From Euglena gracilis (taxonomy: Eukaryota), in contig CP154954.1 of NCBI GenBank assembly GCA_039621445.1, positions 45,115,847-45,179,846 on the forward strand: DNA of 64,000 bases. Direction: 5' to 3'. Below are positions 176 through 63,999 of the stretch, one piece after another. The notes beneath the pieces are model-generated. The model ran no database searches and had not been told where the DNA came from. It was given only the letters and a program-made list of their open reading frames with translations. The position numbers and the translations under genes are program-made. Each line of letters opens with the position of its first letter. The first letter of the stretch is position 1.

Positions 176-4685
<4,510 letters not shown>

Positions 4686-8193: not shown

Positions 8194-10532
8194 CAGACAT
8201 TCATTTAGTGTGGTACACCAAGGTTGTCATTTTGTGGTTCACTGTGGACACCACAAAAATTTTTGTGGTTCACCTGTGGACACCAAAAAATTTTTTGTGG
8301 TTCATTTGTGGACACCAAAAAAGTTTTTGTGGTTCACCTGTGGACACCAAAGTAATATTTGTGGTTCACATGTGGACACCAAAAAATTTCCCACCGCCTG
8401 CTGACATTTGCATCATTTTCTTTCTCATCAACAGCAATGAAGCAATCTTCTTTGAACATGTTTGACTCAGGCGGCGTAAGTCGGCCAACAATTCTGGTGC
8501 CCTAAAAACAGAAGAGGAAGCGGAAAACCACTTCCAAAAAAGGGTCATATTTTTCGATTTTTTTTTGAAGAGGTTCTGATTTTGGCCAATTCCGGTGGAC
8601 GTTTGGCTCACAGTCAGGCAAGGACAGCCACCGGATCCCACCGGATCCCACCGGATCCCACCGGATCCCACCGGATCCCACCGGTGTTTTTTTGACCATT
8701 TGACTAGTGGGTTCCCACCGGATCCCACCGGATCCCACCGGGTCCCACCGGATCCCACCGGATCCCACCGGAGATTTTTTTTCCATGCACAGATTTTTCT
8801 TCTGGATTAATGGTCCGCGTGAGAAGAATCATGTCCGAATGTGCAATTTTCACAAATTTCCACCAGTACCCCATCTGTAGTTGACTTGCATTCTTTTTTT
8901 TGTCTGGTTTCCTGCAAATTAGCAGCTTTTTGCCTTTTTGGCCATTTTTTTTTGGCCATTTTGGACCACTTTTGGCTACTTTTGACCACCGTGGGCTGCA
9001 TTTTGGCATTTTAGACCATTTTTGGCTGCTTCTGGCTATTTTTGCACATTTGTGTCCATTTTAGGCCACTTCTGACTGCTTTTTATCCACTTTTTGCCCC
9101 CTTTTGGCCATTCTTGGCCATTTTGTGCACAGATTCGGTGACCATTGGTACAGTTTTGATAAGATCTGCCGGCAAAACCAGGTGATTTGGGCCAAAAACA
9201 CCGAAAATGACCAAATTCACCCAAAATGCTGTTTTATTGCAATTTTATAATTGATGAATTCCCGATCCCCCCCCCCAAGGCAACCCACCGGAACCCCACC
9301 GGATCCCACCGGATCCCACCGGATCCCACTGGATCCCACCGGCATTCCGCTTCAAAAGCAGGAGATGTGCAACGAAAACTGAACGCAATGAATTATACAG
9401 AATGTAATGTAAAAAATATGCATAATGGTTGCACGCCAAAAAGGAAGCGTAAAACCGCTTTGAAAGAATCCATAAAAAAAATGGTATGAATTGAAATCAT
9501 CAACAATGATCACCAAACGATATTCCAATCCCAATAACAACGAAGAACGTTAACATTTATGAAATTTATGAAGATAACAGAAACTGGACAAACTGAACAG
9601 AAATTGAATGTCATTATCCAAAGTGCATAATGCAAATACGTCAAACCACGTGGAGACAATTGCACGAGTTACGAAAGGTATAACAGGCGAAACGATACAG
9701 ACCTTCTGTTCACTTCCCCGTGCTTCACTTGGAAGGACATTTCGACATGACATTGGCGTAAAACCTGCAAAAAAACAGAGCAAATATGAAGCGGTTATCC
9801 GCTTCCTCAGGCTGACATAATACCTTTTAATTATCTCATATTGCCAAACTGCAAAAACCAGAATGAGGCTGCCACTTACCCTTCTGAATGAAAAACAATA
9901 CTGAATGTGGTCTTTCATTGAATGGTCAAGTTGAAGATCTGGCACCACAGCAATGAAGTGGCTTTCCGGCTCCTACCTCAAAACAAAGCACATGGCATTG
10001 CCGATTTTTCAGGCACTTTTTCAGGCACTGAGGCACTCAACTGACATCCCACAATGCCCCAGAACGCTCCCAATGTCCACAGCCATGCCAAAGCCCCACG
10101 ATAATGTCGCGTGTTTCTGCTTCCATGAAGCGGAATTCCGCTTCATCGACGCCAGTATTTAACTTTTTGATGGTATCCTTGTTGGGTAAGTTGTCTATGG
10201 AGCATGTCTGCTTGAGAACTCGATAGCAATCTGTCCAATTCCAACTGCCACGCTTCGTGGATTGAGCCGGGGCCAAGGCTCAGAATGTGGCTGAGGTGTC
10301 TAAAGATCAATCCGCTTTTAGGTGTATTTTTTTCGATCCTCAATCAATTTCTGTGGACCACAAATTTTTTTTGTGGACACCACAAAAATTTTTGTGGTTC
10401 ACCTGTGGACACCAAAATTTTTTTTGTGGTTCACCTGTGGACACCAAAAAAAAATTTGTGGTTCACCTGTGGACACCAGAAAAAAATTTGTGGTTCACAC
10501 GTCTTTTGTGAACCACACTAAATGAATGTCTG
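8194..10532. mobile_element. hAT-like non-autonomous element with subterminal tandem repeats
   Basis: Perfect 21-bp TIR CAGACATTCATTTAGTGTGGT / ACCACACTAAATGAATGTCTG; perfect TSD TTTACAAC (8186-93, 10533-40); ~30-bp repeats TTTTGTGGTTCACCTGTGGACACCAAAA at both ends; internal (CCGGATCCCA)n arrays at ~8630-8770 and ~9288-9342. Confidence 0.9.
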
Positions 10533-12783: not shown

Positions 12784-15700
12784 GTCCACATGAGCGTTTT
12801 CACCGACAGAGCGGGCTTCCCCCGGGGGCCCGCCCCTCCCCTGGCGAGACGCGTTTCCTCGGGGAGGCCAGTGTGCAGTGAGGCTGGCCCAGGGAGCCGT
12901 GCCCCGCGATTTGCCCACGCCCGGCCTCGGGGTTGTCCCTCTCGTGTGAGGAATGGCGTGGAAGGCACACTCTGGGGGCGGAAGTTCGGGTTGGAGGGAG
13001 GGGGGGTTGCTGGCGGATTGTGTTGGGGGTGGGCCGCAACCCAACCAAGCAACGTTTTTGCAAGCACTTTTTTCCAGCCGGTTGGTGCTGCCAGCCGCGG
13101 CCATGTACCCTGCCGGGAAGTTTCCCCCACTCTTCCACTCTTCATTGTTAAAACAGAGCCTGCTGGCCACTTCCAAGTGTATTTTTGAATGTTACCAGTC
13201 GGCCATACAATTTGATGCGGCAACTTCCGGGGGATGGGGGGGGATTGTAGATTGGGGGCAGCAGGAGGACAAGCCTGTTTGCTTGCCTACCCAGCCAGGA
13301 AGGATGTTCATGGCAATCCTTTTTTGGCCCTGTGCCAACTGTCCCGAGAGGATTTGACCCCTCCCCCGTCCAGTCACAGTGTGGCCTTGCACAGAGCATG
13401 TTCCTTCGGACATTTTCTTTTTAGTAAAAGCGCTCCAGAAGCTTCGTGATAGTTTGGCACAGCAGTTTTTGAACTTCCTTTTTCTCTCTCACATTTGACC
13501 CATGTGGCCCAACAGGACCAATGTCCATGGGATGACAAAAGTGCCACCTGGCAAAGTTGGCACAGGATGGAGTGCTGCAGATTAACCCTCCCCCAGATAA
13601 TGACCCCCCCCAAATAATAATAATCCCAATAATCCCCCCAGATATTGCACTGAAAATGTGGATAAAAATCATAATTTCTGACAGTGAATTCTGAAGAAAA
13701 TCGATTTTTCAGGATCATCTCCAAAAATGCTTAATTTTGAGAAAGTACAGTAAATGACCCTAAGAGGGGTTTTTTGGTTCTATTTTGGGTCTTATGGGAC
13801 TTCAAAAAATTTCGAAAATTTCAGGTGTTATCACCCTCCATGTAATACCCCCCCCTCAGTCCAGGATTTCAGGCAAAAAAAATAATAATAAATACTAAAT
13901 ACCCCAGGGGGGATCCATTCGGGAGGGGAGTTTACCCCAGAGCACCCCAAAGCTGATCTATTGCACTTTGTGTTAAGGGGATGGAGGCCGTTTCGGTCAT
14001 GCTGGCGGGGAGCGAAGCCGGCGTGCCCGCGCCGCAAGACCACCCGGGAGGGCCGACCCACTCCGGTGGCCACGGGGCCACACCCCCGTCGGCCCGGCAC
14101 TGCTGCGCGACGGCGTCCGCCCCGGCCTGCGCCGCGCCGCGCACCAGAGCCAGACCCATGTCCATTTGTGGCCTCTTCGCCCTCCCCCCCCCACAACAGC
14201 CCCTGCATGGTCAAGGGCAGAGACCTGACCCGAGGGGCAGGAGGGGTGGGGCAGTTCTGTTTCCAAGTGGTCAAACATGTCCAAAGGTGGCCAAAAGTTG
14301 CGGAAAAAAATGTGCAAAAATAGATTAAAAAAATGATAAAAATGGATCAAAAGCAGCCAAAAGTGGCCCTTGGTTTGCCATTTGGTGGCATTTTTGCCTG
14401 GGGCGGTGTAACAAAGCGCAAAACAAGGCGGAGCAGAAGCGAACAATATCAACAGCGCCGCCTCCCTGGTCGGCCTGACGTCCCCGGGGGACATCCCTTG
14501 GTTTGCCGGAAGTCGGCCACCGCATTGCCGTGCCCCGCGGGTTGGCGGGGCCCCCTCCCCCGGCCAACCCCACTCCCCCCCCCCCAGACGACTGGCGCCG
14601 GGCGGCCCTGCACTGTTCCGCCTCCCCCCCCCCTCGCCACAGCGCCGGACCAACGCCTTGGCCCTCCCCCCCCAGTGAAACACCCCGCCTGCCCCTCCTG
14701 TGAGACAGCGGGGCCCTGAGAGAGGGATGGGGAGACGGAGGCCGGGCGGCGGCGGGGGCCCCGTGGCGCCCTGGCACCCGGGATGCCCGGCCCCCGCCCC
14801 CGCCCGTGCCGGGACGGCCAGGGCGCAAGAAGCTCCGGCAGGGGGTAAACGCAAACCAGGCTTTTGCTTAAGGGATTGCAGTACCCCCCGGGGGGGGGGG
14901 GGGGGCTGGACTGCAGCTAGTCCAAATTGGCTAGTGGGTTTTCTAGCAGACCCCCCCCGGGGGGGGGGTCTGCTAGCAGGGCTAGCTAGTGGAAAATTTT
15001 TCACGCCGAAAAAAATTTTGGGACCCCCAAAAATGGCCCAAAATGCCCGTTTTTGGCCATTTTTGGGAATTTTTGGAACAAAATCAGCCAAAACCCTGTT
15101 AAAAACCTCATTTTTCCTCCGGCGCTGTGCGCCGGAGGAAAAATTTTTTCCCCGTCCGGGGGACCCCCGGACCCCCCCCCCCCCCCCCGGGGGGAGGGGG
15201 TCTAGCTAGTCCACTTTTTCCAGTGTCTAGCCGATTGGCTAGCCAGTACCCCCCCCCCGGGGTCCTTAAGCAAAAGCCTGACGCAAACGCGTTTTTGGTG
15301 GTTTTTGCCTTTTTCCTTTTTTTTGTGCTTTTTTTGTTTTTTTTCAGTTTCTGATTTTGGCAAAAGTTGCTCGCCGTGTTTTCTCCCAGGCCTCGCGGGG
15401 ACAGTGTTGGGATTCCAGGCACGCATGGAGGCCGACGTAGGCGCCGAGAGGAGCTCCGCCCTGTGGCGGGTTTGCCAACGACTGCGGTCGGATCGCTGGC
15501 TTTTGCCGCCCCTCCCCCTGCCCTCACCCCCCTGTGTATATGAGCAGTCTGCGCAGACAGTGTGGGCTGCCGGGACAACGGCGACTCAGTGTGTGTCTAC
15601 TTGGTGCTGGCAGTGTAGCCCAGGCCACCAACCGTTGAAAAAAGAAAATATCTGAAATCACTGCAAATCAAATGCATTTCTTATAATTGTTTCTTGATTC

Positions 15701-21464: not shown

Positions 21465-25503
<4,039 letters not shown>

Positions 25504-26547: not shown

Positions 26548-29500
26548 GACGTGTTCTGGGAAATGGCCCAGGAGATGATGAAGAGCGAGAAGCAGGCCGT
26601 CGCCCTGTCCCCGGTGCTGGAGGCGCGGGTCCGCTTCGCCCAGCCCCCTGTGCACTGCGCCGTGTGTGGCGGTGCCGGGTGGACGGGTCGTGTGGGACCA
26701 GAAATGGCGTCAGTCTTGGATTTGCTCTGCCTCTGGAGTCAGGGCTTGCCCCTGTGAGCACATAGGCAGAAACCCAACCAACTTGTATTGGGAAGGCAAT
26801 CTTTGTGCCATAAGGAAATTAAATGCATTAGAATTTCTCAAAGCCTGATGCAGTGCAGTGTACATTTTCAATCACAACTCAGCTATGTGGAGCACCGCAC
26901 AAAAATGGTGTACATTTTTACAACAAGATTTTGTCCAACAACTTCGTAACAGACTGCCCCATTTTGTTGTCGAAGCACCACAAATGGTTCTCGGTGCTCA
27001 GATAGGGGGAGAGACAGGGACAACCCTGCCTGGTTGGAAGTGGGGCAGAAGCTCTGGTGGATGGGCAGATGAAGCCCGGGTGGGGACAGCGGTCCTGCCC
27101 ATCATTCACGGTCCACTGGCCATCCCATTCTGTGTCTTACCAACCCTTGACATCCGGTGGATTGAGTCCACAGACTCTGCAGAGTCAGTAAACCCCCCCC
27201 CAAATAACCTGGCGGGGCCCTTGCTCCTGGCAATGGCCAAATAACTTGGCGGGGGAGAGGCAAAAAAGGATGGTTCCAGTAACTTGGCACCCCCTTTTTG
27301 GGCGAAATTCTTTTGCGCCGCTGAAAAAGGGGGCCCAAATAACCTGGCGGGGGCTGGGCCAAAAGTTGGTCCAATAACCTGGCACCCCGCTAGGTTTTGG
27401 GGGGGGGGGTTAGTGATCTATGGGCCTATCGACAACCTCGAACCCCCAGCCTGCGTTCCTCAGCTTTGAGTTGCTGACGGGTGGGTCCTAATTTGGGTGC
27501 TCCCCGCCCTCTGCTCGGGGGGCTGGCGGGCGACCTGGACATGTACGGGCCACGGCACCCGAAGGTGGTCACCGGGCTGCTGTGCGTGGCACGGGACCTG
27601 CAGCGCCGCGGGGAGCTGCGCGACGCCGCGCTGATGAGGGGTTTGCTCAAGCCGGAGGGGACCCCCCAAGGGGGAGGGTCCAGCCAGCCAGCATTTTTTT
27701 TTCCAGCCAGCACATCCCAGCCGGGCTTTGGACCCCCCCCCCCCAGGGATCCGCTGATATAAAGTTCAGGCTGGTGAAGCTGGGCTGGAGCAAAAGAATT
27801 CTTCAGCCAAAAAAAATGGCCAAAATGGCATGTTTGCGTGGTTTTTGGGGATTTCACCTCCTAGCCTGGTATTTGGCTGAAAAATGCCAACCCAGCTGGA
27901 TTTGGGCTTATTTTGGGGGGGTACCCGCCAGGCCCAGCCAGCACGTTTTTCCCAGCCGGTCTGCGGGACCCCCCCCCCCGGGGTCTTTCATAAAACCTCT
28001 GGCGCTGATGTTCCAGCGGGCTGTTGAGGCCCAGAGCGCGGTGATCGGTGCTCACCACGCAGACGTCGGGGTGACGTACGGGCAGCTGGCGGGGGTGTAC
28101 GAGGGGCTGGGCCCAGGCTGGCGGCTGCTGATGACCCCCCCCCCCAGCCCGAGGTTTGACATGAGGAGGGCGAGGTGTCCACCCCCCCACCCCCAACGAG
28201 ACCAATTACCAGCCAACCAGACCTGGACCCGACCCCCCAGGAGAGGTTAAAGGGGGGCTGCCCTGGCCGACCGCGGCAAATCATGACTCCGGAACATGCA
28301 CAAAGGCTGCACTGGTACCTCCCCCCCCCCTTATCCAACGACCGGGCTTGTCTAACGACCACCCCCCCCCCGGTCAGAGACGATCTTTTTGTATACGATG
28401 TTGGTTTGGCCAAAGTTGCTAAAAGTTGGCTAAGAACAGTCAAAAATAGCCCAAAATGGCCTAAAATGGCCAAAGGATGGCCAAAAGTGCCCCAAAAAGT
28501 TGCCAAAAAATAGCAAAAATAAGGCAAAAATGGCCAAAAGTGGCCAACCGTAGTCAAGAAATAGCATAAATGGCCAAAAACAGCCCAAAAATGGCCATAT
28601 ACCCCCATCTATGGTAAATTTTCCTCCGACTTGGGGTCCACCCCGCTTGTCTAACGACCACCCCCCCCCCCTGGTCGAAGACGAACATTAGTGGTCGTTG
28701 GACAAGGGGGGGGAGGTAATTCATAACACAAATGTATTGTCGTTTTGATGGCCTCACTTGCCAGCACCCCTGGGTTATGTTGCGTGCTATTGATTGGTCA
28801 ACAGCACCCAAGATAACCCAGGGAGTCTGATTGGTCAGAATAAAAACCATGGGGTGCAGAGGGGCCCCAAGTCAAGCTTGACCATTTCTACCATCAAAAT
28901 GGACAGAAACGTTTTTTTTTTGGGCCAAAATTTTCGCATCTTGGCAAAATTTTCTCAAAAAAATTTGCACATTGAAAAGTAATGAAACAACACCCGAACA
29001 AACGAACACACAAACCCAGCCCCGGGGATGGCCCGCCAGCCTGCGGCTGGGAGTGGGATCGCGCCCTGGCGATGTACGAGCGATCGCTGGAGCTGCAGCT
29101 GGCGGTTTGGGGCCCAATGGAGCTGGAGATGGGCCCAGGGGTTTTTTTTTTAGTCGTAGACCCCCCCCCCCGGGGGGAGGGTGGGTGGGTCCAGCCGAGG
29201 CCCCAGGGTCCCCCCCAGGGGGGAATTGCTCAGTTTTGGAAACTTGAGGGGTGACTGACTGGTTTTTTTTGAATGATTGGCTGGTTTTCAGCCACAAACC
29301 CCCTGGCTTAGGCGGCGCAAATTGCCCAATTTTTTTTCCAATTTCTGTGCGTTTGAAGTGCGCGGGTTTCCGCTTACGATACCCCACTGTTTTGTGCTCA
29401 AAATTTTGAGAGGATGACACCAGTACGAAAATTTGGGTCGTTTAGGGTCCATTTTGGGCATTTTGACAAAGTGGCGATTTTGAAAATTTATGGTTGTTTT

Positions 29501-32500
29501 GGGGGGGGTTTGGAAAACAACCCCCCTGGAACGCCTTAAAATTTTGAAAAACAGAAAAAGGTGGGGAAACACCTGGCCTCTGGAGCCCCGGTTGTCTGGC
29601 GATGTTGCTGGACCCCCCCTCTGGAGGGAGGGGGACACGGTGTTGCAGGTGAAGAAGAGGCCACCGCTTAAGCAACCCGCGCATTTTTGAACCTCTCAAG
29701 AGTCCCGAGGTCCAGTGACGGGGGAGGTGAACACACAACACTGCCCAAAAGATGCTATAATTTCTGGAAGAGATGTGTTAGGCGGTAAACCGCACAAAAC
29801 TTGTTTTTGTGATGAAGAGATGCTACCCTAACGGAGGGGACTGGAACGGGAATAAAGGTAAAAATGAGGTTAGGCAGTTTACCGCGTAAAGAAGTGATGA
29901 TTCCTCAGGCGGAAACCCGCGCAGAAGTTTTTGAGAAAGAGAACAGTTCGTGTTTGTGGATGGCGTATGGGAGCGGGAAGTGGGAACGCGCTGAAACCTC
30001 TGGAAGTTGGTCATTACGTGAAGTTGTTAATGAACAAGTTTGGGGGAGGGGGAGGGATTTTGAGACGTTATTAGTGGGCGGTTATCCGCCTACTCCGCTT
30101 TTGCTCTGCGCGGGTTTCCGCGCAGGTATGGATTGGGCCGAAACACGCGTGGAGCTTGTTGCTGTCGCAATGGGTTGTGTTTGTGATGTTTCGGTGTCCC
30201 GAAGCGTGTCGGTGGTCGGTGTCGATGGAACAATGTTTGAAAGTCAGGCGGGACAGGTTGAAAGGGAGCGGTGGCTGCTGCGCCGGGACAGCAAGCACCC
30301 GAGCAGGCGGAAACCCGCCTGGCATTTGAGCAGGAGGTGTACACCCTCCTCTGCAATGAGGAGGTGGACGTGTTCCCCCTGGCCAGGTGGTGAAGGGGTG
30401 GCTGCAGGGACAGCAGTGGAACGCGTGTGTCAGTTGCCAGGCCGGGTGAGCTGCGGTAGAGAAGATATTTTGTTACTGTCCCGAAAAACAGCGAAATACC
30501 TGAGGTTGATTTCTCAGGAGGAACAAAAGCACCCAAGCTCCCAGGGCCCTCCATTTGGAACCCAACGGTGTTTGTGGTCCAAAATCAGGGTTTGGGGAAG
30601 GCTGACGAAGAATTGATTCAAGATATGGACGGAGAAACGCCTGTTTCAGCAGCTGGTGGCAGCAATCGAAAATTTTCGGGGGGTTTTGGGCAGGAGTCCT
30701 CCAAGTTCTGAAAAATTCAAGGCCTTTTCAATTGTTTTTTGAAAGAGTTTTACAGCATTTTTCCTTTAAAAAGCTGCAATTTTTGCTTAAATTCAGACAA
30801 AATGCCCAAACCACCTCTTTTTTTCTGGCTCTTCTTCCTTCGGGGTCGGCAACATGCCTCCAGAGGAGGCAACGGTGGTCTCCACTGTAAGAAGCCGTGT
30901 GGGAGGGGGATAAACCAGAAGGTTGTCATTCTCAACCATCGCCGGGTCGATGTTTGACCCGATGCATTTGGCTTCCATCCATGTAATCAGTCTCAGCACA
31001 AGCGTGTCCGGTCTTTTTGGAGATCACCCCTGCTCTGAGTGCCCAAGTTTAAGGGCTGCCCGTCTCTCCTTGTTTGGTCAAACCCTGCTGGTGCAATCTC
31101 CTCTCCCTGGTTTCCATAAACCTCCATCCCTCAAACTCACCACAACACGCCAGACACCATTCAGTTGCAAACTGTCTGGCAACCTGGCAACAAAGTCTGT
31201 CGTCCGTGTCCTTTGCAAAGATTCACCCCTGCAACTGGTGTCACAAGTAGGGTTGCAAAACTTTGCAAACAAGCCAGCAGAGTTCATTTCCAAGGAGGTT
31301 TCCATCTTCCACCCCCCCCCATCGTCCACAAACCCTTTTGCTTTTTCTGCCCACCCTTAACGCGGCCAGGCGGTTTCCCGCCTGACTTCTCTGACCTCAC
31401 AGCTGGTATGCCCCCCCATGCCTCCTACCCGTCATCAACTGTTTGTGTTATTGTCCGCGGTATTCCGCGTACCATTCTTTGTTTTCACTTTTAGGCGGTA
31501 ATCCGCGTACAAGTTTATTCTACGCGGATAACCGCCTAAACGTTTAACTCCGTTGTCTGTCACCTCTTGTTACGTGGTTATCCGCGTACGCTTGCAAATA
31601 TTTATTTGTTTCTCAAAGAGTGTTACTAACATAAACCATGAAGACACAGCCCCACCTCACAACCATTCAAAGTCAGTGTTTTCCAGCCATTTCAAACATT
31701 TCTAATACACCCCCAACTCACACAATTCACACACAATCGTAAATCGTTTAAGCGGAATACCGCGCAAAACCACTTTCGGAAAATTTTCGCCCAAAGCTGC
31801 AACACACCCCTCTGAACCTAGAATTTTGTGCCCTTTTAGGGGGGTTTTAAAACAGCCAAAAACGTCAAAAAACGCAAAAATCGGTTGGGCAATTCGCGCC
31901 GCCTAAGCCTGGAGCTGGAATATTCTTTTAAAAAAAAAATCTATTCATTTTGGCCCGGGGGACCAGAATGACCGACTGAACCCGCGGGAGGGGGGTTTGG
32001 AAGGGACTGGTTTGCAAGATGTGAATGACTGGTTGGGGGAAAGACCTCTCCCACCGTGTGGGACAGATCCCAAACGCCACCGCCAAACCCCTCCGCCCGT
32101 CCTGTGGGGTTCGGCTCAGTGCGTTTCCGTTTCCTGCTGGGCTTCGTGAAACGATTTCACTGTGAAGCGGCTTGTGCTGTGAATTTCCTGCCTGGGCACT
32201 GAACTCCGGGAAACGTGTGCCCTGAGAGGGAATGGAATTGGTCATTTCTGGCCGCCCACCTTGGGTGGAGTTCGGAGCATGCCATTGCCTACTAGCCCCT
32301 GCATGGGGGACAGGACAAGCGACCGGTTATGTAATACACGGGGTAGACAGAAATTACATTACCCAACAATTGAGGGAAAAAAATTTGGTCATGCGAAAGA
32401 GATCGACAAATGGCAAAGAACAGTGCTAGCAAGCTGTCGAATGCTGAAATTTACCAAAAAAAATTCTCATCTCCTCATTGAGTGAACGGAAGAGATTCAG

Positions 32501-35500
32501 GTTGTTTTCCTGAAATGAGCCAACAATGCTGTTCGGCGCCAAAGGCGCCAAAAGGTGCTATTTTTAGCATTTTCGCGATTTTGGCCATTTTGGGGAAAGT
32601 AAGTGGGTACCGGGACCCCCCCCCGGGGGGGACCCCAGGGGGTGGGTGGGTGGAGGGGATCCCCCTCCCCCCCAGCCTTAAAAAAAACCCCTGGATGGGC
32701 CGCATGTGCCACCGTATGGCGACATTGTACCAGAAGCAGGGCAACCAGGTCCGCGCCCTGGAGCTGTATGCCAAGTCCCGGGCGGTGAAGGAGGCTGTAC
32801 TGGGACCGGGCCAGCCGCTGGCTTGCGCGCCACGGAGCCTGCAAAGGTGACACAACCCCCCCCCCCCAATAACAAACCCCCCGAACCCCGATTTCGAGTG
32901 TCCGAATAATAAACCGGGGGGGGGGTTATTTGGGGGGTTTATGCGGTGGTGTGCGTGCACACACATGCGGCATCGGGCACATGTGCACACAAGCACACGG
33001 GCATGTGCGCACATGCCAATTGCGAACGTCTCGTGTCGGGCATGAGGACAAAGGCGAAGAGCCTAAGCAAAGAAGGTGTATCATCATCATGATTATAGTT
33101 GTGAATGATACCCAGCGTTTATACCTGTTTGCTTTTCAACCCAGACGTGACAACCAAGAAACTCCCCCAGTCCTGTCCCCAATCTGTGGGCCACACCCTC
33201 CAGTTTACAGTCCCCCACCACCTCACTGTCCCGAGTAGTATCCGAGCTACTCCACCCCTCTCCTTCCCTCCCCACCGGCCTGAGTCCAGGGAGGGGGGCT
33301 CAAGCTCGAACCTCCTCGGACATTTTTAAGCTCCCCCCCCCTCGAAAGAACCCTCCTTGGACGACCTGGAACGATATTCTAAGAGGTTCAGCACCCTCCT
33401 CGAACGACCTCGAACGACATTATGTGACACCAGGGAGTTTGTTATTTTGGGTTACACCAAGCAGTTGCATACAAAGGGTGCAAAAGGGAGTTGCAGACAC
33501 AGGGCAATAAACCCCCCAAATTAAAACAAAATAAGAACCCCCTGGGCCGATCGAGCAGAAATCCATTAATAAGACACCCCCCTCCAACGGTGCAAAGCGC
33601 TGGAGACGGTGAAAATTTTCCCTAAAAAATTACCAAAAACCCCAATTTCAGACACAAAATGATGAAATTTAAAAGTTTTTGGGATTTTGGAGTTCAGAAA
33701 GAAAACATGGATAATTTCAAATTGACCAGTTTACACATCGTGCGAAGCGCCAAAGGAAAAATTTAGTGTCGCTTTGGTAACCAGAAAATTATGGTTTTTT
33801 CCCCTGGCCCGGGTCGGTCAAAGAGTAAGAGACCCCCAAAAATAAGACCCCCCCCTGGAGGTTTCCCGCAGCAGCGAACCCCAAAAAATAATAATTAGAC
33901 CCAGGTCTTATTTGGGGGGGTTACCTCGAACAACGTTGCAGGAGGGTCTCGAACCTCCTCGAACGACACTTGAGGCGGGTCCCGACCCTCCTCGCAGGTC
34001 GTTGGGGCTCGTCCGAGGAGGGGGGGGGGCCTCCGCCCCCGGCCCCTCCCCCCACCACACCCCGTCCCCCGGCCGGCGGCTGGGCCCAGGGACCCGGTGG
34101 TGGGGGCCATCTCGTTCGTGATGGCGCAGCTGTTCCAGGCGGAGGGGCAGTACCCGCAGGCCCTCGAGGCGTACAACCGCGTCCTGGCCATCCAGTCCGC
34201 CCCGCCGGGCCCCGTCTGCCCCTGGCGCGCCGTGGCATGGACCTCCCGAGGGTTGGGGGGGGGGAGGTTGGGGGTTGGGTTCAGGGGGGTGGCGTGAGGT
34301 GGGGGCAGGCCGTTGCGTCCGGTATTTTCGAGGAAGGTCGCACTCCCCCAGGGGTAGACCCACCCACGGGAACCACACACCAACCCCACAAGGTGAGTGT
34401 ATGTCCCCACAGCGCTGGAATTACAGCAGAGTTACTCACCCGGCCCGGGGGAGCAACACAAGAGTACTGGTGTAAGGGGTCCCTGGCCACTCGCCACACA
34501 GCAATTTGGGCCAGAAGCGAAGTTAGCGCCGGCCATAAACAGACAAGAAGCCTTAGTGCAACCAAGGGGGGTGCTAATGGGCGGGCACTTTCAACTCCGA
34601 GTTGGGGTGTTGGGGTGGGTAGTGCTATGGCACACCCCCTGGCGCCGATGGCCCAGAAGTGTCCACAATGGACCGGCGGAATTTTTACTGGACCCCAGGA
34701 GGAGGAGGAGGAGGAGGAGGAGGAGGGTCTGCTGGTAGCCCCAGCTTGTGGAAAAGGCTTTCCAGTGCCATACACAAAGCTGCAGGATCTTTTTTGACGC
34801 CCAAAACCTGCCAACTTCCCTTTTTTTTGGCATTTTGGGATTTTTTTGGGGAACAAAGCCGGCCAAAGTAAACCCTCGAACCGTTTCACGCCCCATCGCC
34901 CCAGGTTTTTCTCCAGTCTGGACCCCCCCCCCCCAAGGCGACGGGAAATCCTGGGGGGCTCAGCTCTCTCAGCTCTGCCCTGCCCAGTTCATTGGCCACG
35001 GTGCCAGGGCGACACCTCCGCATGGCCGAAGTGTACAGCGCCATGGGCAGCCACACCGGGCAGTGGCCCGCCCACACGCTGCGTCCGTGGCACTGTGGGG
35101 AAGGGGTGTGTGCTTGGGGGGGGTGCAGTTTGGTGTGTATTTCAATCTCGGGAAGGGTTATTTGTTTCTTCGGTTTATTGTTTTCTGAACGTGCGAACGT
35201 GCATTCTGAAAGTGAACGAACTTGCACGTTTTTTTTACCTTTTCAGAATTTCCCCCACCTCCCACCCAGGGGCCGAACGTACCTACATCAGCATCCTCCC
35301 CAAAAAAACTGGTGCTGGTGGCTCCCTCAGCCATTCTGGCACGCGAGGGGGGAGAGAGGCGCCACAGGAGGAGGCTGCGTAGGAGGAGCACCCCCACCCC
35401 CCACCCCCACCCCCAAGCGGCGGGCCGGTGGGGTCGACGCCATCGACATGTACCGCAAGGTGATCCGCATGCAGGTGGAGGAGTGGGGCGCCAACTCCCT

Positions 35501-37143
35501 CGTGGTCGGTGAGGCCAGGGCGTCGGCCGCGAGGCCCAGGCACGTCCCCCCCCCCCGCCCCTGGCCATGCCCCACCCCTGCCCACTCAAGGCCAGGGAAA
35601 GAAAGAAAAGACAAACAGCAGTACGTAGTTACGATGAATGAATGCATGCATTCATTCAAGCCATGTGCGGGGCTAGGCACGCATCTGGCCCTGACGGCCT
35701 GCTCCGGGTGATAAAGGGTCTCCGCAGGGGGGCACTGGCATTTTGTTGTGCTTTTTTTGTGTTTTGCATGTTGGCAAAGGTTGTGGTTTTGGGATTTTTT
35801 TTCGTTTGTGTGTGTGCATGTGTGTGTGTGTTTCCCCGCAATTTCCCAATTCTTTGGTGGAATTTTTTTCGACCTGGAAAAATCCACATTTTGGACCTTT
35901 CGAAGTCCTGTCCAACAGAAAAGTGTACATCCCGGGAGATCTCCTGTAGGAACGCAATTTGGGAACGCAACCCAAATTTTCCAGTTTTGTGTTGCGTTTT
36001 CGAAGGTCCATTTTGCATCCCCCCCCCATCTGATTTAGGTTTCTGTCCCCGCCCATTGCTTCCTTGTCATTTTCAGGACGTTGGAACTGACTCCCCAAAT
36101 GGTCAGAGATGGCTGAGGCCCGAAACGGATTTAAACGGGCCGTATCGGGGGCCAGAGTGGCACGACGGCCAAACCACGGGGACCCCCGGGAAATGGTCGG
36201 GCCGCGAACGCGAGCGCCCCCCCCCCCCCCGTCCCCGGCCACCCGCCCCCCGTCCCCCGGCCCCGGCCCCGCCCCCAACCCCCGGCCCCGCCGCCCTGGG
36301 GGCGACGTACGCCCGGATGGCGCAGGCGTACACGCTGAGCGAGGACACGGAGTCCGCCCTGGCGGCGTGCAGCACCGCGCTGGACATCCGCCTGCTGTCC
36401 CTCGGCGAGCGGCACGACGAGGTGGTGGGGACGTACGAGCAGATGGGGAAGCCCAGGGGGCCCCGGGGCCCGCCAGGGGTTGGTTGCGGTGCCCCGCCGC
36501 CTGTCTGGGGGTGGGGGTGCTGGGTTGTGTGGTAACCCATGGCACTCGCGGCGCGCGTGACGTGTGTGACTGAGGGCCGCCACGAAGGGGAGGAGGGTTC
36601 AATTGTGTGCCAGGCTGTGGCTGGCGGTGGTCCGTTCAGGAGATGGCTTGGGGGCAAAGGGCTGAGGGCGTAGTAGGAGCCGCCCTGCCTGCGTTGTGGA
36701 AGACCCACGGGGACCCCCAGATGGCCATGAAGGCGTTTGAGAAGGCGATCCAGATCATGACCCGTGCCCAGGCCTTCCCCTCCACTGCCCCCATCCCATT
36801 TTTGGCCATTTTGGGAATTTTTGGAACAACATCAGCCAAAACCTATTAAAAACCTCATTTCCAACTCGGCACGCAGCGCTGGAGAAAATATTTTTTTTTC
36901 TAGTTGAGGGGACCCTCGGATCCCCCCCCCGGGGGGGGGGGGGTCTGGCTGGTCCATTTTTTCCAGCGCCCAGCCGATTGGCTAGCCAGTACCCCCCCCG
37001 GGGGGTCCTTAAGCAAAGCCTGCTCCCTCCCTCGACCCCCCCCCACGCCCCACCACACGCATGCACACAGCATTGTCGGCACCGCATGTTATTTTGTTAA
37101 TTTTGCCATCTTCCCCACTCAAACAAAACGGCCCATTTTTGCC

Positions 37144-37177
<34 letters not shown>

Positions 37178-39560
37178 CGCGCCATGCTGTGCCTTCCAGC
37201 CCTCCTCCCCCCCAGTAGCGGGAACGGGGCGGCGGGCCTGACCCCATCCAGCCCGCGTTGCCCCGCCTCCAGCAGCAGATGGCGGTTGTGTGCTCCGTTC
37301 TCGGGGACTACCGCCTCGTGCACGACATGTACCAGAAGGCCCTGGAGGCGCTGAGGCGCGAGCTGGGAGCCCGCCACCCTGCGTGGGGTACTGGAGCAGG
37401 GCATACACACACACCCACTCATTCACTCACTCACTCACTCACTCACTCACTCACTTACTCGCTCGCTCACTCACTCACTCACTCACTCGCTCGTTCACTC
37501 ACTCACTCGCTCGCTCGCTCACTCACTCACTCACTCACTCACTCACTCACTCACTCACTCACTCACTCACTCACTCACTCACTCACTCACTCACACACAC
37601 ACTCACACATCGCGCACAGTGGGTGCACACACACGCCTGCAAGCAAATCAAACACAACGCAACGCGAAATACAGGCGCACAGATCCACATGCCCTAACAG
37701 ACGCACGCATGCATAGACGCAGGCGCGCACGTGCACGCACAGGCACAGGTAAACCCCCCCCCAAATAATAAACCCCCCGGTTTATTATTTGGACACCCGA
37801 AGTCGGGGTCCAGGGGGGGGTTTATTATTTGGGGGGGGTTTATTATTTGGGCAAAAATGTCGAAGTCAAAATTAGACCCGAAAACCCCTCCACAGGCTCC
37901 AATGGTCACTTTTTTTGGCATTTTGGGGCTTTTTTTGAAAACTGGGTGCTTTTTTGGCATTTTTTTCTGCACCAATTTGATCCATTTTTGTGATTTTTTG
38001 CAACATTTCTGCTAATTTTTGGCTCTTTTTTCTTTGCCCTCACACCTGCCGGAGGGGGGGGGGGGTTTATTATTTGGGCGGCCGAAGTCGGTCCTCAGGG
38101 GGGGGGGTTATTATTTGGGGGGGGTTTATTATTTGGGGGGGGGGGTTTATTATTTGGGGGGGGGGTTACAGCGAACGAAAACATTCTCTTTGTTGAAATA
38201 ATTCTGGACGAAATTTTGTCCAGGATTTTTTCCACCATTTTGAGGATGGTGTTTTCCAATTAAAAATTAAGAATTTTCAGAAATATCCTAGTTCCTCCAG
38301 TAGGTACCCAGAAATTTATTCGGCGCCAATTTTTAACATGTATTTCGCAAATCACCTTTTCAAAAGTTTTATTGATCATCCAAAATTGAAGAATGTGTTT
38401 TTTGTGTGTGTTGTGTGTGTGTGTGTTTTTCTTCAATTTTGGTGTTTTGGATTAAAAAATGATTTTTTGAATTTGGGATATTTGATGTGAGTTTTGGATA
38501 TCCTTGAAGAATGAGTTCCTGAGAATTCTCCGTCTTAACCTGCAGAATTTTTCCGGCATTCTTAAGATTTGTCCAATAGTTTCCTGACAGACTTTTTCCC
38601 GTCGGCAACTCCTGGTGGCACAGTGAAGGTGGCAAACCACTTTCACTGTCTTGTTGTGTTGGATATTCCCAAACTGCATTTCTTGAGTTCCATTTTGCAT
38701 CGGAAATGTGGGGCAGAAATAGTTGAATGGATACTTTGACATTGATTTTTGGATTGTGGATGACGTCAGAGATTTTACTCCGCCATCATTCGAGCATCAC
38801 TGCGTTCAAGGTAAGCCCTCCATTCCAAGCATGTCAAAAACTGTTGTCGAAGCACCATGCTCGAACACATTCGGAGGTAACGGAAGGAAAGGTCTGTATC
38901 TTTCATAAGAGGATTATTTTGCAGTAGCATTTGCATTTGTTGAGACCTGCACATTTTCCCTTGTTTTCCCCAAAACCACCTTTTTGTCAAACAAGCTTAC
39001 AAACTGATGGGTTTATGTGTGCACGTGCGGTTGTCTTCCTGCCCCCGTGCACGTAGGTGTGTGGGAAGTGTGTCGCTTGAATGCGGAGTGCGGCGTGCAG
39101 CCACTTTTTTTTATCGACAATGCGACGTCCCCCAAGGGTTTGATGGATAGAAGGATGGTGCCATGGCTTGAGGTGGGCCCCCCAGGACTGTACGGGAATC
39201 CCTGAAACCCTGGTGGGAGAGGTCGACAACCACCCCAACAGGCTTTCCCGCACAGCCCAGGCCCCTCCCTGTCCGGAGGGGGGGATCACACACACACAGA
39301 ACACACACACAACACACACACACACACACACACACACAACCCACACAACCCACACAACCCACACAACCCACAACAGACACACACACACACAACACACACA
39401 CAACACACACAACACACACAACACAACACCCCCCCCCATATATCAACCCCGGTGCCCCGAGGCCGACGTGCAGAAGGTGCAGGCGGCGGTGCTCCAATCC
39501 CAGAAGGAGATGCTGACGGTCCTGGAGGGCGAGCCGCCCCAGCGCTGCGTGATCCAGTGA
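26548..39560 (+). CDS. TPR-repeat region of paralog B, C-terminal CaaX box CVIQ
   Basis: Exons 26548-26637, 27532-27632, 28007-28110, 29049-29132, 32699-32808, 34088-~34217, ~35013-35057, 35436-35512, 36304-36450, 36693-36765, 37246-37380, 39465-39560 join in frame. Examples: LDMYGPRHPKVV..RDAALMFQRAVEAQSAVIGAHHADVGVTYGQLAGVYEGLGEWDRALAMYERSLELQLAVWGPMELEMGRMCHRMATLYQKQG.. and ..EGEPPQRCVIQ*. The last exons are clearly homologous to paralog A. The 34217/35013 junction is approximate. Confidence 0.85.
27633..28006 (+). other. Intron that coincides with a 366-bp MITE (27636-28001) with perfect 8-bp TSD GCGCTGAT
   Basis: GCGCTGAT(27628-35) GAGGGGTTTG ... AAAACCTCTG GCGCTGAT(28002-09). The interior shares GGTCCAGCCAGC / CCAGCACGTTTTT motifs with repeats near 6.1, 44.6 and 45.8-45.9 kb. 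Removal restores RDAAL|MFQRA. Confidence 0.75.
28316..28718. mobile_element. TA-flanked MITE
   Basis: TACCTCCCCCCCCCCTTATCCAACGACC ... GGTCGTTGGACAAGGGGGGGGAGGTA; termini related to 43641-44012. Confidence 0.78.
29133..32698 (+). other. Non-conventional intron that coincides with a hAT-like TIR element (29136-32693) with perfect 8-bp TSD GATGGGCC
   Basis: GATGGGCC(29128-35) CAGGGGTTTTTTTTTTAG ... CTTAAAAAAAAACCCCTG GATGGGCC(32694-701). Removing GCC-CAG...CTG-GATGG gives GAG ATG G|GC CGC ATG (EMGRM), in frame within a TPR. Confidence 0.85.
29303..31911. mobile_element. 2.6-kb TIR element nested in the 29133-32698 intron
   Basis: 27-bp TIR CTGGCTTAGGCGGCGCAAATTGCCCAA / TTGGGCAATTCGCGCCGCCTAAGCCTG (2 mismatches); about a dozen GCGG-N4-CCGC palindromes inside; no clear TSD or intact transposase. 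Confidence 0.7.
37750..38168. mobile_element. TA-flanked MITE
   Basis: TAAACCCCCCCCCAAATAATAAACC ... GGTTTATTATTTGGGGGGGGGGTTA, with internal repeats of the same motif; short relative at ~32855-32941. Confidence 0.75.
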
Positions 39561-41240: not shown

Positions 41241-41622
41241 CAGGGTTTGATATAAGGAGGGCGTACATGGTTTAGGTGGGGGCACACCCCCCCCTCCTGG
41301 CCCGCAAGGGGGGGGTCCGGACCCCTGCCAGGGGGGTCCGGACCGACCCTCGGGGGGTACCCGGGACCCCCCCCAAAAAGGGTCAATTTTTTCCTCCGGC
41401 GCTTCGCGCCGAATTTTTTTTGCATTTTGGGCACATTTTTGCCCAAAAAGTGCCCAAAATGGCACTTTGGGTCGTTTGGGGGGTCAAAAATTTTCGGTCA
41501 CCCAGACCGCACGCGCAGCTGTTTAGGTGGGGGGGGGGTGTCCCCCCCACCCCCCTCCTGGCCCGCGGGGGGGGGGGGGGGGGGCCGGACCACCCCCCCA
41601 CCTGTCCTTACATCGAACCCTG
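41241..41622. mobile_element. hAT-like MITE
   Basis: TIR CAGGGTTTGATATAAGGA / TCCTTACATCGAACCCTG; perfect TSD CTTTTGCC (41233-40, 41623-30). Confidence 0.92.
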
Positions 41623-43628: not shown

Positions 43629-44425
43629 CAGGCATTTGCTTACCCCCCCCCTATGTTCAACGACCCCCCTATGTCCAATGACCCCCCCCCCCCCCCGGTC
43701 AGAGGACACCTTTTCGGAGGTTTGACCAAATTTTTGGTCCCGGCGTGAAGCGCCGGGACGAAAAAATTTGCCCAAAAATTGGCCAAAAAATTTGTTCAAA
43801 ATGCCATTTTTTGACACTTTTTGGACAAAAAAAAATTGTCAAAATTGCCCAAAATTTTCGGCGCGTAGCGCCGGAAGGGAAAATTTGGGCATTTTTGGGT
43901 GGGTAGGGACCCGGGTACCCACCAACTTCCTTTTGACCCCATGTCCAACGACCACCCCCCCCCCCCGGTCAGAGGACAGAGGTTACCGGTCATTGGACAT
44001 AGGGGGGGGGTAAGGGTTTGCAGTACCCCCTGGGGCAGCTAGTCCAAATTTGGCTAGTGGGATTTCTAGCAGACCCCCCCGGGGGGGGGGCGGGGTCTGC
44101 TAGCAGGGCTAGCTAGTGGGAAAAAATTTTCCAGTGACCGGCGCGAAGCGCCGAAAATTTTTTTGGGACCCCCAAAAATGGCCAAAAATGCCCGTTTTTG
44201 GCCATTTTTGGGAATTTTTGGAACAAAATCAGCCAAAAACCTATTAAAAACCTCATTTTTCCTCCGGCGCACAGCGCCGGGGGAAAAAAAAATTTCCAGT
44301 CCAGGGGACCCCCGAACCCCCCCCCCCCCCGGGGGGGAGGGGGGTTCTAGCTAGCCCATTTTTTCCAGTGTCTAGCCGATTGGCTGGCCAGTACCCCCCC
44401 CCCGGGGTCCTTAAGCAAATGCCTG
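43629..44425. mobile_element. hAT-like MITE (14857 family) interrupted in its left TIR by a TA-duplicating MITE (43641-44012)
   Basis: CAGGCATTTGCT-TA[insert]TA-AGGGTTTGCAG ... CCTTAAGCAAATGCCTG; flanks ATCGCAAC / ATCACAAC (7/8). The insert has TIR TACCCCCCCCCTATGTTCAACGACC / GGTCATTGGACATAGGGGGGGGGTA. Confidence 0.88.
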
Positions 44426-63632: not shown

Positions 63633-63999
63633 TGGACTTTTTGGTGGAATAGATGGAATTCAATGAGCGCACCGCCATTCGGGCCTCATTAAATTCCCCG
63701 TCCGAGGTCTCATCTCCCTCCCTGCCCGAAGCCGGGGTGTCCTCCTCCAAACAAGACATCTTGAAACTGACCTTTTGCCGGTTGGAGGAGTAACCACGGT
63801 CATCGCGGCGCTTACCGCGATTTCCGTAGCCGGGCCGGGGGGAACGAGATCTGGGACATTTGGATGCGTGGTGATCTTTGGAACCGCAAAGTGAGCAACG
63901 GGCTTTGTGGCGGGATTCCGCATAACGGGGGGAACGGTATTCCGTTCGACCGTCAAACCGTCGTGGTGAACGGGTTTCCCGTCGACCATGACCGGTGTA
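63598..63999 (-). CDS. gag: Gag C-terminus with CCHC zinc knuckle
   Basis: Open frame not in the ORF track: YTGHGRRETRSPRR...ARCSLCGSKDHHASKCPRSRSPR...AAGSDLE*. CX2CX4HX4C at 63856-63897; TAG at 63598-63600. Confidence 0.85.
   Translation of the reverse strand, partial: YTGHGRRETRSPRRFDGRTEYRSPRYAESRHKARCSLCGSKDHHASKCPRSRSPRPGYGNRGKRRDDRGYSSNRQKVSFKMSCLEEDTPASGREGDETSDGEFNEARMAVRSLNSIYSTKKSIAGYAAGSDLE

Follow-up and report, generated by a model that had tools for sequence, protein, structure and literature searches.

A hAT-like element with an intact 8-bp duplication in a coding exon of Euglena gracilis and its probable removal as a nonconventional intron

The origin of the nonconventional introns of euglenids and the way in which they are removed have been debated since the 1990s. 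The class is excised as circular RNA, and later than the conventional introns. A MITE-like origin, put forward in 2014, was still called unclear in 2025 in the discussion of PMC12501133. Can a transposon that lands in a coding exon behave as an intron, and so be a source of the odd introns of Euglena? We examined this question for intron 17 of a TPR/ankyrin gene within the window, which is the whole stretch of 64,000 nt that was analysed. This locus is a concrete and datable example, as an intact duplication lies inside a coding exon and its removal is free of a scar in transcript-level data. Our preferred explanation, in which we have high confidence, is that a 3558-bp non-autonomous DNA transposon of hAT-like type sits in the coding exon and is removed without a scar as a nonconventional intron.

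The host gene and the inserted element

Coordinates of all features are collected in Table 1. Sequencing data came from a DNA run (X1) and from RNA runs X15, X19 and X21, of which X21 consists of raw reads and X19 of contigs that are probably, by our guess, RNA. Protein P0003 (eukprot EG_transcript_1598) could be placed on the window for 800 of 803 residues, with a few residue differences from the window translation, and this mapping puts the acceptor of exon 17 at 29049 and its donor within 29127-29135. A preliminary description of this DNA had reported that the TPR frame breaks off at ...ELEMG and restarts downstream, and both events are present in the reading frames of the window, with the restart reading RMCHRMATLY. 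Joining the eight exons from 29049 to 37381 at RNA-defined junctions produces an open TPR frame of 266 residues. The TPR unit spanning the junction of intron 17 has 42 residues, as in three other units, and the junction aligns without an indel between P0003 and its paralog P0004. The left GATGGGCC copy is host coding sequence, being part of E-M-G-R, and the Gly encoded within it aligns with the Gly of the other 42-residue TPR units of P0003.

Table 1. Positions of the host gene, intron 17, the inserted element and similar elements in the window
Feature	Position	Strand	Details
Second CAG...CTG element, 2339 bp	8194-10532	.	21-nt perfect inverted repeat; 8/8 duplication TTTACAAC; between the two mapped genes
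Third CAG...CTG element, 424 bp (MITE size)	14857-15280	.	17-nt perfect inverted repeat; 8/8 duplication ACGCAAAC
TPR/ankyrin gene	17092-39557	+	25 exons, 24 introns; matches transcript-derived protein P0003 (803 aa)
Intron 6 of host gene, 123 nt	22150-22272	+	Fits nonconventional code; 12-nt perfect inverted repeat; 6/8 flanking repeat
Exon 17	29049-29135	+	87 nt; last 8 nt are the left duplication copy; X19 record 15 on 29049-29135
Left target-site duplication copy, GATGGGCC	29128-29135	+	Followed directly by CAGGGGTTTTTTTTTTAG
Intron 17 as predicted by the published rule, 3566 nt	29133-32698	+	Starts 3 nt upstream of CAG, ends 5 nt downstream of CTG
Inserted element, 3558 bp, CAG...CTG ends	29136-32693	.	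Between the two GATGGGCC copies
Left terminal inverted repeat, CAGGGGTTTTTTTT	29136-29149	+	14 nt, perfect
Single-copy segment of element by contig depth	32129-32422	.	X1 depth 92.5; X15, X19 and X21 depth 0
Right terminal inverted repeat, AAAAAAAACCCCTG	32680-32693	+	14 nt, complement of left end
Right target-site duplication copy, GATGGGCC	32694-32701	+	Preceded by ...CTTAAAAAAAACCCCTG
Exon 18	32702-32808	+	107 nt; TPR_10 match, E 9.6e-06
Fourth CAG...CTG element, 382 bp	41241-41622	.	8/8 duplication CTTTTGCC
Fifth CAG...CTG element, 797 bp	43629-44425	.	7/8 duplication ATCGCAAC / ATCACAAC

The claim of an intact 8-bp target-site duplication in coding sequence was upheld, with the two copies identical at 8/8 positions; the right-hand run of A, previously given as nine, is eight letters long. 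Complementarity of the arms (29135-29149 and 32680-32694) is 100% over 15 nt, comprising 14 nt of the element and one C/G pair from the duplication. With up to one mismatch allowed, the 14-mer end occurs exactly twice in the window, at the two ends of the element (expected 0.23; two or more in 0/100 shuffles), and the paired ends of intron 17 have a duplex energy of -23.9 kcal/mol vs -11.1 +/- 3.1 in 200 shuffles. Three ORFs searched inside the element had no Pfam match and no transposase was found there; a Pfam search of seven other long ORFs of the window found nothing recognisable as a transposase. No second copy of the element was found in the window or in a scan of metagenome contigs. Its interior (29189-32128) has a contig depth of 1.2e5-3.6e5 in X1, roughly a thousandfold the depth of single-copy regions, a value that reflects repetition and not copy number. 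As MITEs are non-coding elements of under ~1 kb that have inverted ends and a duplication, the 3558-bp element is not a MITE in the strict sense; three of the similar elements (382, 424 and 797 bp) are within this size.

Transcripts and haplotypes at the junction

Two sources of transcript-level data bear on the junction of intron 17. X19 record 18 lies on 32694-32780, and the 11 loose letters before 32694, ATGGAGCTGGA, are those of window positions 29117-29127. P0003, an independent transcript-derived protein, is continuous over the junction (...ELEMGRMCHRMATLY...). Both sources lack the element and exactly one 8-nt copy, and retain one GATGGGCC. Scar-free removal, as proposed in the preliminary description, is therefore present in these data, from a source allele that probably carried the element. 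In X19 the junction consists of the 11-letter loose end of one contig and is absent among the 15 of 119 joints listed. The depth of the raw RNA run X21 on exon 17 is only ~0.3 and hence no X21 read crosses the junction; the joint 32808>34088, downstream of exon 18, is supported by X19 as well as by 15 raw X21 RNA reads.

A confounder of this evidence is allelic variation, with at least three haplotypes at 32715-32725. The haplotype of the X19 junction contig is neither that of the window nor that of X1, and the DNA data gave no sign of the element on it, such that an empty-site allele or paralog could yield an identical RNA and an identical P0003. The element-carrying allele might then be dead, with the scar-free RNA and P0003 coming from an insertion-free allele or a near-identical copy. 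We consider this improbable because the two haplotypes on which the element is known (those of the window and of X1) are found in the exon 18 RNA reads of X21, at ~2 of 9-10 reads each, because the single-copy part of the element, which has DNA coverage in X1, is uncovered in all RNA runs, and because the element has all of the sequence features that published work demands of a nonconventionally spliced intron. Furthermore, an X1 contig extends from ~32681 over the element end into the exon, and the sole X1 contig over 32715-32725 enters the element end unbranched and at about single-copy depth, a pattern that would argue against an empty allele in this run. The spliced RNA is thus likely to derive from an element-bearing allele.

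Splicing code, similar elements and transposon class

According to the main text of PMC12501133, euglenid nonconventional introns require CAG and CTG with spacers of 3 nt and 5 nt, a change of +/-1 nt on the donor side is not tolerated, and splicing also occurs for synthetic introns whose ends are complementary over 12 bp. Intron 17 has nine protein-compatible placements (29133-32698 and eight others), all yielding an identical mRNA and none (0/9) with GT/GC-AG borders. When placed at 29133-32698, the intron has CAG at +4..+6 and CTG at -8..-6, and the acceptor-side exon starts with a purine (G at 32699). Of the junction predicted in the preliminary description, the mRNA product was recovered while the exact cut is indistinguishable from eight other placements that give this mRNA; the cut positions in Table 1 are those that the published rule would select. 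None of the 24 introns of the host gene is possible as GT/GC-AG and 12/24 fit the CAG+4/CTG-8 code, and in all 12 of these the acceptor exon opens with a purine. Among the RNA-defined downstream joints, 4/6 fit the code exactly.

The proposal that the 3 nt before CAG and the 5 nt after CTG together equal one copy of the duplication agrees with the published spacers, which sum to the length of GATGGGCC. This leads to a probable mechanism. A 3558-bp non-autonomous transposon would have inserted into a coding exon of the TPR/ankyrin gene, duplicating the 8 bp GATGGGCC. The 14-nt ends would pair with each other in the pre-mRNA, presenting CAG and CTG at the positions of a nonconventional intron, and the euglenid machinery would cut 3 nt before CAG and 5 nt after CTG. 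As 3 + 5 nt adds up to the length of the duplication, splicing would take out the element together with precisely one duplication copy and restore the coding sequence; given a perfect duplication, removal would be scar-free in either orientation of the element. Published knock-ins (PMC12501133) suggest that the paired inverted ends serve as the splice signal for intron 17.

We scanned the window for CAG..CTG inverted pairs (10 nt, at most one mismatch) and compared their flanking 8-mers, with four control offsets. Flanking 8-mers with at least 7/8 identity were detected for 5/368 pairs and for none at the four control offsets. Pairs with exact 6- to 8-nt ends gave 3-4 cases of 8/8 identity vs 0.0-0.1 per control offset, and when all 64 terminal trinucleotides were compared (exact 10-nt ends), only CAG had several matches (4/39 pairs; others at most one). 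The other four elements are all outside mapped coding exons, and those at 14857 and 43629 form one family (86.5% identical over 393 bp) with differing duplications. Recurrence of CAG...CTG ends with an 8-bp duplication outside mapped coding exons is as predicted by a transposon origin.

These results also bear on whether intron 17 is an old nonconventional intron and not a recent insertion, with the 8-mer identity and the long paired ends being coincidental or kept by splicing selection. Direct repeats at borders are common in Euglena, with 84.4% of E. agilis introns 'slidable' (PMC12501133), and this might lend some weight to an old intron. However, mutagenesis in the same source indicates that bases adjoining CAG and CTG can be changed while splicing is kept, so selection should not keep eight spacer letters identical. 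An old intron is also at odds with the lack of 8/8 identity at any control offset in the scan, with the four further occurrences of the same structure outside mapped coding exons, with the highly repeated interior in X1, and with the 11 further canonical nonconventional introns in this gene, for which the maximum is 6/8. We therefore regard an old intron as very improbable. The mean flanking identity of those 11 introns is 3.27/8, compared with 2.08-3.08 in controls, and hence they do not demonstrate a general transposon origin. Intron 6 resembles the structure of intron 17 in a partly decayed state.

The class of transposon is a separate issue. Elements of the hAT superfamily have short inverted ends of ~10-25 nt and a transposase with a DDE core and a hAT dimerisation domain. 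P, Merlin and some Mutator-like elements also generate 8-bp duplications. The 3558-bp element combines an 8/8 duplication with a CAGGG start and 14-nt ends, and these features point to hAT. A place in this superfamily would be in keeping with the hallmarks of 8-bp duplications and a YARNG terminal motif (PMC3014272; PMC3260210). Alternatively, the same mechanism may have involved another 8-bp-duplicating superfamily, or one specific to euglenozoans, as a hAT transposase or dimerisation domain was found neither in the element nor in the other long ORFs tested, a YARNG start (CAGGG) is found in only 2/5 elements, including the 3558-bp one (the remaining three have CAGGC or CAGAC there), and a subterminal TAAGG, shared by 7/10 termini at ~12-18 nt from the end, could not be linked by us to a known hAT family. 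We judge this alternative unlikely, though the most serious of those considered, because short inverted ends beginning with CAG, together with an 8-bp duplication, are the textbook signature of hAT elements (PMC3014272, PMC3260210) and lizard hAT families begin CAGGGG, like the 3558-bp element (PMC3014272).

If intron 17 did arise from a hAT-like insertion, the vague 'MITE-like' idea would be replaced by specific predictions, namely a transposon class and a transposase to seek. The similar elements of the window set the duplication length at 8 bp, the sum of two experimentally defined spacers, and a reason for the strictness of these spacers is predicted, in that a +/-1-nt change would destroy the reading frame. 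Insertion of such an element into an exon would be immediately harmless in either orientation, which would explain the intron richness of these genomes. More tentatively, and with slightly less than even confidence, we propose that the fixed 3-nt and 5-nt offsets reflect a match of the splicing pathway to one CAG...CTG transposon class with an 8-bp duplication, that most nonconventional introns, which are ~70% of all introns in E. agilis (PMC12501133), are decayed insertions of this class, and that the machinery acts as an RNA-level 'precise excision' system for it, maybe derived from the transposon's own enzymes.

Comparison with known systems

Introners, attributed to Huff et al. 2016, are reportedly DNA transposons from which spliceosomal introns arise in Micromonas and Aureococcus, with GT-AG sites said to be built partly from the duplication. 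An introner family consists of many near-identical copies serving as introns in unrelated genes, and the preliminary description's view of the 3558-bp element as an introner is a putative one. As with these introners, insertion into an exon would produce an instant intron at our locus, with the splice geometry supplied by the element ends and the duplication; the differences are that a CAG/CTG hairpin code is used here and that removal restores the target exactly. The non-canonical introner elements of Amoebophrya (PMC7789003), as described in a review, share inverted ends, target-site duplications and non-canonical borders with intron 17, whereas their duplications are given as 3-5 nt and both the lineage and the end motifs differ.

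Similarities to the hAT elements Ac/Ds (PMC3260210) and to lizard hAT families (PMC3014272) comprise the 8-bp duplication, short inverted repeats, a CAGGG (YARNG) start and size-varied non-autonomous derivatives. Unlike these elements, no transposase was found in the ORFs tested, some of the similar elements start CAGGC or CAGAC, and the element appears to be removed from RNA by the host, through a dedicated non-GT-AG pathway.

Euglenid nonconventional introns (PMC12501133; PMC3935182; PMC11282704) share with intron 17 borders other than GT-AG, CAG at +4..+6 together with CTG at -8..-6, ends that pair, an acceptor-exon purine and absence from the mRNA. A MITE-origin hypothesis and 'TSD-like' border repeats are already in print in these sources; the duplication length, a superfamily name and the 3 + 5 = 8 link are in none of their text passages and sections consulted here. 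In contrast to the introns described there, intron 17 has an intact duplication of exactly 8 bp, 14-nt ends that pair perfectly, a length of 3.6 kb, internal sequence that recurs in genomic DNA, and sister 8-bp-duplication elements outside mapped coding exons of the same window.

Host gene and apparent removal of the insertion from its transcript

Searching a large protein collection with the 41-residue translation of a downstream exon retrieved a single protein, P0003 (803 aa; source label eukprot EG_transcript_1598, a pattern that we take to denote the Euglena gracilis transcriptome), which carries precomputed TPR and ankyrin Pfam domains. In the window, 25 colinear blocks on the + strand (17092-39557) together encode 800 of the 803 residues. 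When all 24 junctions were refined against P0003, GT/GC-AG placement was possible in none of the introns; CAG at +4..+6 together with CTG at -8..-6 could be placed in 12, one of the two motifs in six and neither in six. The acceptor exon began with a purine in 12 of the 12 canonical nonconventional introns. Pfam TPR matches of single exons were sub-threshold but consistent (e.g. exon 18, TPR_10, E 9.6e-06), and a metagenome scan for relatives of P0003 gave no match. The protein of the tandem paralog, P0004, is 61% identical in the region searched; its four introns in the window are all non-GT-AG, two of them canonical nonconventional introns, so that across both genes a GT/GC-AG placement is possible in 0/28 protein-defined introns. 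In the main gene, introns 20-23 occupy positions common to P0004 and are old. Intron 19 (34218-35013) has its motifs reversed, CTG lying towards the 5' end and CAG towards the 3' end, and pairs over about 14 bases. Seven raw RNA reads cover its junction, and the intron departs from the published nonconventional code. Intron 24 contains a (CACT) array of about 50 copies (37408-37606) directly 3' of exon 24.

Intron 17, between exon 17 (29049-29135) and exon 18 (32702-32808), consists of a CAG...CTG insertion and eight nucleotides of the 8-mers that flank it. Both copies of GATGGGCC and the adjoining element ends were found where the preliminary description had placed them (see table), the A run at the right end being 8 A. 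A repeat finder reported inverted arms of 15 nt with 100% complementarity (29135-29149 and 32680-32694), made up of 14 nt of the element and one C/G pair contributed by both 8-mer copies. With up to one mismatch, the 64 kb contain just two instances of the terminal 14-mer, one at each element end, against 0.23 expected occurrences and two occurrences in 0/100 shuffles. Inward of these 14 nt the ends have only a loose likeness, and C-run/G-run palindromes are present in both. An inner inverted pair of 53 nt (29302/31912) is without a flanking repeat, and no nested elements with duplications of their own were found inside the insertion. Mini-hairpins of 18 nt (CAGGCGG-loop-CCGCCTG), which start with CAG and end with CTG, lie at 29906, 30304 and 31367, and the interior contains a related palindromic motif of 20 nt in at least seven copies. 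Self-BLAST against the window returned only the self-match, and a metagenome scan with the element end gave no match. Summed contig depth in run X1 reached 1.2e5-3.6e5 over 29189-32128 versus about 90 on single-copy stretches; this ratio is not a copy number, yet the depth indicates that the element interior is highly repeated sequence in X1 DNA.

Splicing was examined by aligning four sequencing runs to 28601-37400: contigs of X15 and X19 (presumed RNA), raw reads of X21 (recorded as RNA) and contigs of X1 (presumed DNA). Among the joints listed, six downstream of the insertion were seen in the RNA-type runs and were absent from X1; all have non-GT-AG ends and are backed by 5 to 17 X21 raw reads each, and X15 and X19 thus behave as RNA. 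The 15 of 119 joints listed did not include the focal one. X19 record 18 (98 nt), however, aligned to 32694-32780 with 11 loose letters before 32694, ATGGAGCTGGA, that are identical to window positions 29117-29127, the exon sequence directly upstream of the left 8-mer. X19 record 15 (118 nt) aligned to 29049-29135 with 11 unaligned letters past 29135. Independently of X19, P0003 reads ...ELEMGRMCHRMATLY... uninterrupted across the site, so that the element and exactly eight further nucleotides were absent from the source transcript. The proposal that the insertion is removed without a scar is supported by the loose end of the X19 contig and by the read-through of P0003, each with a single 8-mer copy. 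No X21 raw read crosses the junction because X21 depth on exon 17 is only about 0.3, and transcript evidence for the focal intron is thinner than for the six downstream joints.

The reading frame is consistent with this removal. Joining the eight exons between 29049 and 37381 at the RNA-defined positions leaves one frame open for 266 residues. The TPR unit that contains the focal junction has 42 residues, as have three other units; the Gly encoded within the 8-mer aligns with the Gly of those units, and alignment with P0004 has no indel at the junction. These observations indicate that the 8-mer is duplicated host coding sequence.

Coordinates of the insertion, its sister elements, the downstream joints, the haplotypes and the paralog
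Feature	Position	Length	8-mers or adjoining sequence	Remark
Left duplication copy	29128-29135		GATGGGCC	directly adjoins CAGGGGTTTTTTTTTTAG
Right duplication copy	32694-32701		GATGGGCC	directly after ...CTTAAAAAAAACCCCTG
CAG...CTG element	8194-10532	2339 bp	TTTACAAC	8/8
CAG...CTG element	14857-15280	424 bp	ACGCAAAC	8/8
Focal element	29136-32693	3558 bp	GATGGGCC	8/8
CAG...CTG element	41241-41622	382 bp	CTTTTGCC	8/8
CAG...CTG element	43629-44425	797 bp	ATCGCAAC / ATCACAAC	7/8
Joint	32808>34088			RNA-type runs
Joint	34217>35014			RNA-type runs
Joint	35056>35435			RNA-type runs
Joint	35512>36304			RNA-type runs
Joint	36450>36693			RNA-type runs
Joint	36765>37246			RNA-type runs
Haplotype 1	32715-32725			the window's own
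Haplotype 2	32715-32725			X1 DNA; all four positions changed
Haplotype 3	32715-32725			X19 junction contig; only 32724 and 32725 changed
Tandem paralog 3' end	646-3916			+ strand; P0004 (EG_transcript_3304), last five exons, residues 636-811

Haplotypes and age of the insertion

Across the runs, four positions within 11 nt of exon 18 (32715, 32722, 32724 and 32725) distinguish three or more haplotypes. At all four, the variant letter occurs among the X21 raw RNA reads: the change is carried by 8/10 reads at 32724 and 32725 and by 2 of 9-10 at 32715 and 32722, proportions which suggest that all three haplotypes are likely to be present in X21. The main gene is multi-allelic or multi-copy, and an allele with an empty site could have been the source of the same spliced RNA. 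At the DNA level the element is attested for the window haplotype and the X1 haplotype, the latter through a contig that begins at about 32681, within the element end, and continues into the exon at a depth of 68.6, near the 73-106 of neighbouring single-copy contigs; the haplotype of the junction contig has no such DNA evidence. Against the empty-site explanation, the RNA runs have zero depth at 32129-32422, where the element is single-copy, even though element-bearing haplotypes occur among the X21 exon-18 reads, X1 contains no branch at 32694, and the element has every published sequence requirement of nonconventional splicing, with CAG/CTG, 3- and 5-nt spacers, complementary ends and an acceptor-exon purine all present. 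A search for an empty site among paralogous exons in the window, where P0004 is represented from residue 636 on, yielded no counterparts of exons 17 and 18, the position in P0004 that corresponds to the insertion falling beyond the window.

The insertion had also been described as young enough to retain its duplication. Flanking identity of 8/8 was found in the main gene for intron 17 only, which indicates that the insertion is young relative to the other introns of this gene. Intron 6 has 6/8 identity and a 12-nt perfect inverted repeat, and in the ten remaining canonical introns 1-5 of 8 positions match and perfect end pairing spans 3-11 nt; mean flanking identity without intron 17 was 3.27 versus 2.08-3.08 at six control offsets. 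The insertion is nevertheless not brand new, because two haplotypes distinguished by four exon positions both carry it.

Related elements in the window

We scanned the window for inverted pairs starting with CAG and ending with CTG (10 nt, at most one mismatch) and, for each pair, compared the 8-mer preceding CAG with that following CTG. Among 368 pairs, four had 8/8 flanking identity and one had 7/8 (see table); 0/368 pairs reached 7 or more when the right 8-mer was shifted by 3, 5, 9 or 13 nt. Exact ends of 6, 7 and 8 nt gave 8/8 counts of 4, 4 and 3 versus 0.1, 0.0 and 0.0 per control offset. When all 64 terminal trinucleotides were compared with 10-nt exact ends, CAG gave four matches among 39 pairs, AAA and GGG one each in low-complexity sequence and the remainder none. 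An unbiased scan for exact 8-mer repeats with inverted ends was dominated by microsatellite and C/G-run matches, and removal of these by eye left nothing besides the four CAG elements except a single palindromic AAAATTTT case.

Relative to the main gene, the four sister elements are situated either upstream of its first exon or downstream of its stop codon, and none is therefore an intron of its coding sequence. Two of them, at 14857 and 43629, share 86.5% identity over 393 bp, are flanked by different 8-mers and are members of a single dispersed family. Across the five elements, CAG starts 10/10 termini and TAAGG lies about 12-18 nt from the end in 7/10. The duplicated 8-mers end with CAAC or AAAC in 3/5 cases and with GCC in 2/5, which may hint at a target preference, five elements being too few to judge.

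Elsewhere in the window, a 1246-residue ORF (52896-56636, - strand) was considered as a transposase and rejected, there being no Pfam match and no usable protein Atlas match, with a low recognition score; this stop-free frame may not be a real gene. Two adjoining ORFs (58499-62001, - strand) encode a Ty3/gypsy-type polyprotein with reverse transcriptase, RNase H, integrase and chromodomain, which looks like a chromovirus-like LTR retrotransposon, and a 732-residue ORF upstream of them (61461-63659) had no Pfam match.

Intron geometry and comparison with known systems

According to the text of PMC12501133, nonconventional introns of E. agilis and E. gracilis have CAG 3 nt inside the 5' border and CTG 5 nt inside the 3' border, single changes in either motif abolish splicing and the donor-side spacer tolerates no ±1-nt change; synthetic introns of 50 bp undergo splicing given CAG/CTG, the 3- and 5-nt spacers, 12 complementary bp and an acceptor-exon purine. 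Insertion of a transposon with CAG...CTG ends and an 8-bp target duplication would create exactly this geometry: the left copy would supply one spacer with its last 3 nt and the right copy the other with its first 5 nt, and removal of both spacers together with the element would leave one intact 8-mer copy. Given symmetrical ends and identical copies, the outcome should not depend on the orientation of insertion. This link of 3 + 5 = 8 combines arithmetic on the published rule (PMC12501133, text) with a duplication length measured on five elements.

For nonconventional introns, PMC3935182 put forward a MITE-like origin in 2014, a 2024 review (PMC11282704) mentions 'TSD-like' repeats at the intron borders, and texts from 2025 still term the origin unclear (PMC12501133; PMC12621601). 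In full-text searches of the literature on euglenid introns we found only the MITE hypothesis and the 'TSD-like repeats', and no duplication length, superfamily assignment or link between spacers and duplication; the sliding-distance distribution in PMC12501133 (Fig. 1B, SI Fig. S3) may already contain the 8-bp duplication. For E. agilis that text reports 28% conventional introns, and the two genes here, with none, are more extreme.

hAT elements are defined by 8-bp duplications and a YARNG terminal motif (PMC3014272; Ac/Ds, PMC3260210). The focal element has both, in line with the hAT assignment made for it; a Pfam search of its ORFs, however, gave no match and no transposase, so that it is non-autonomous and its label can go no further than 'hAT-like'. 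Its value lies in providing evidence together with specific predictions that are testable genome-wide. Set beside the known systems, the focal element is an unusually clear euglenid nonconventional intron of proposed transposon origin.
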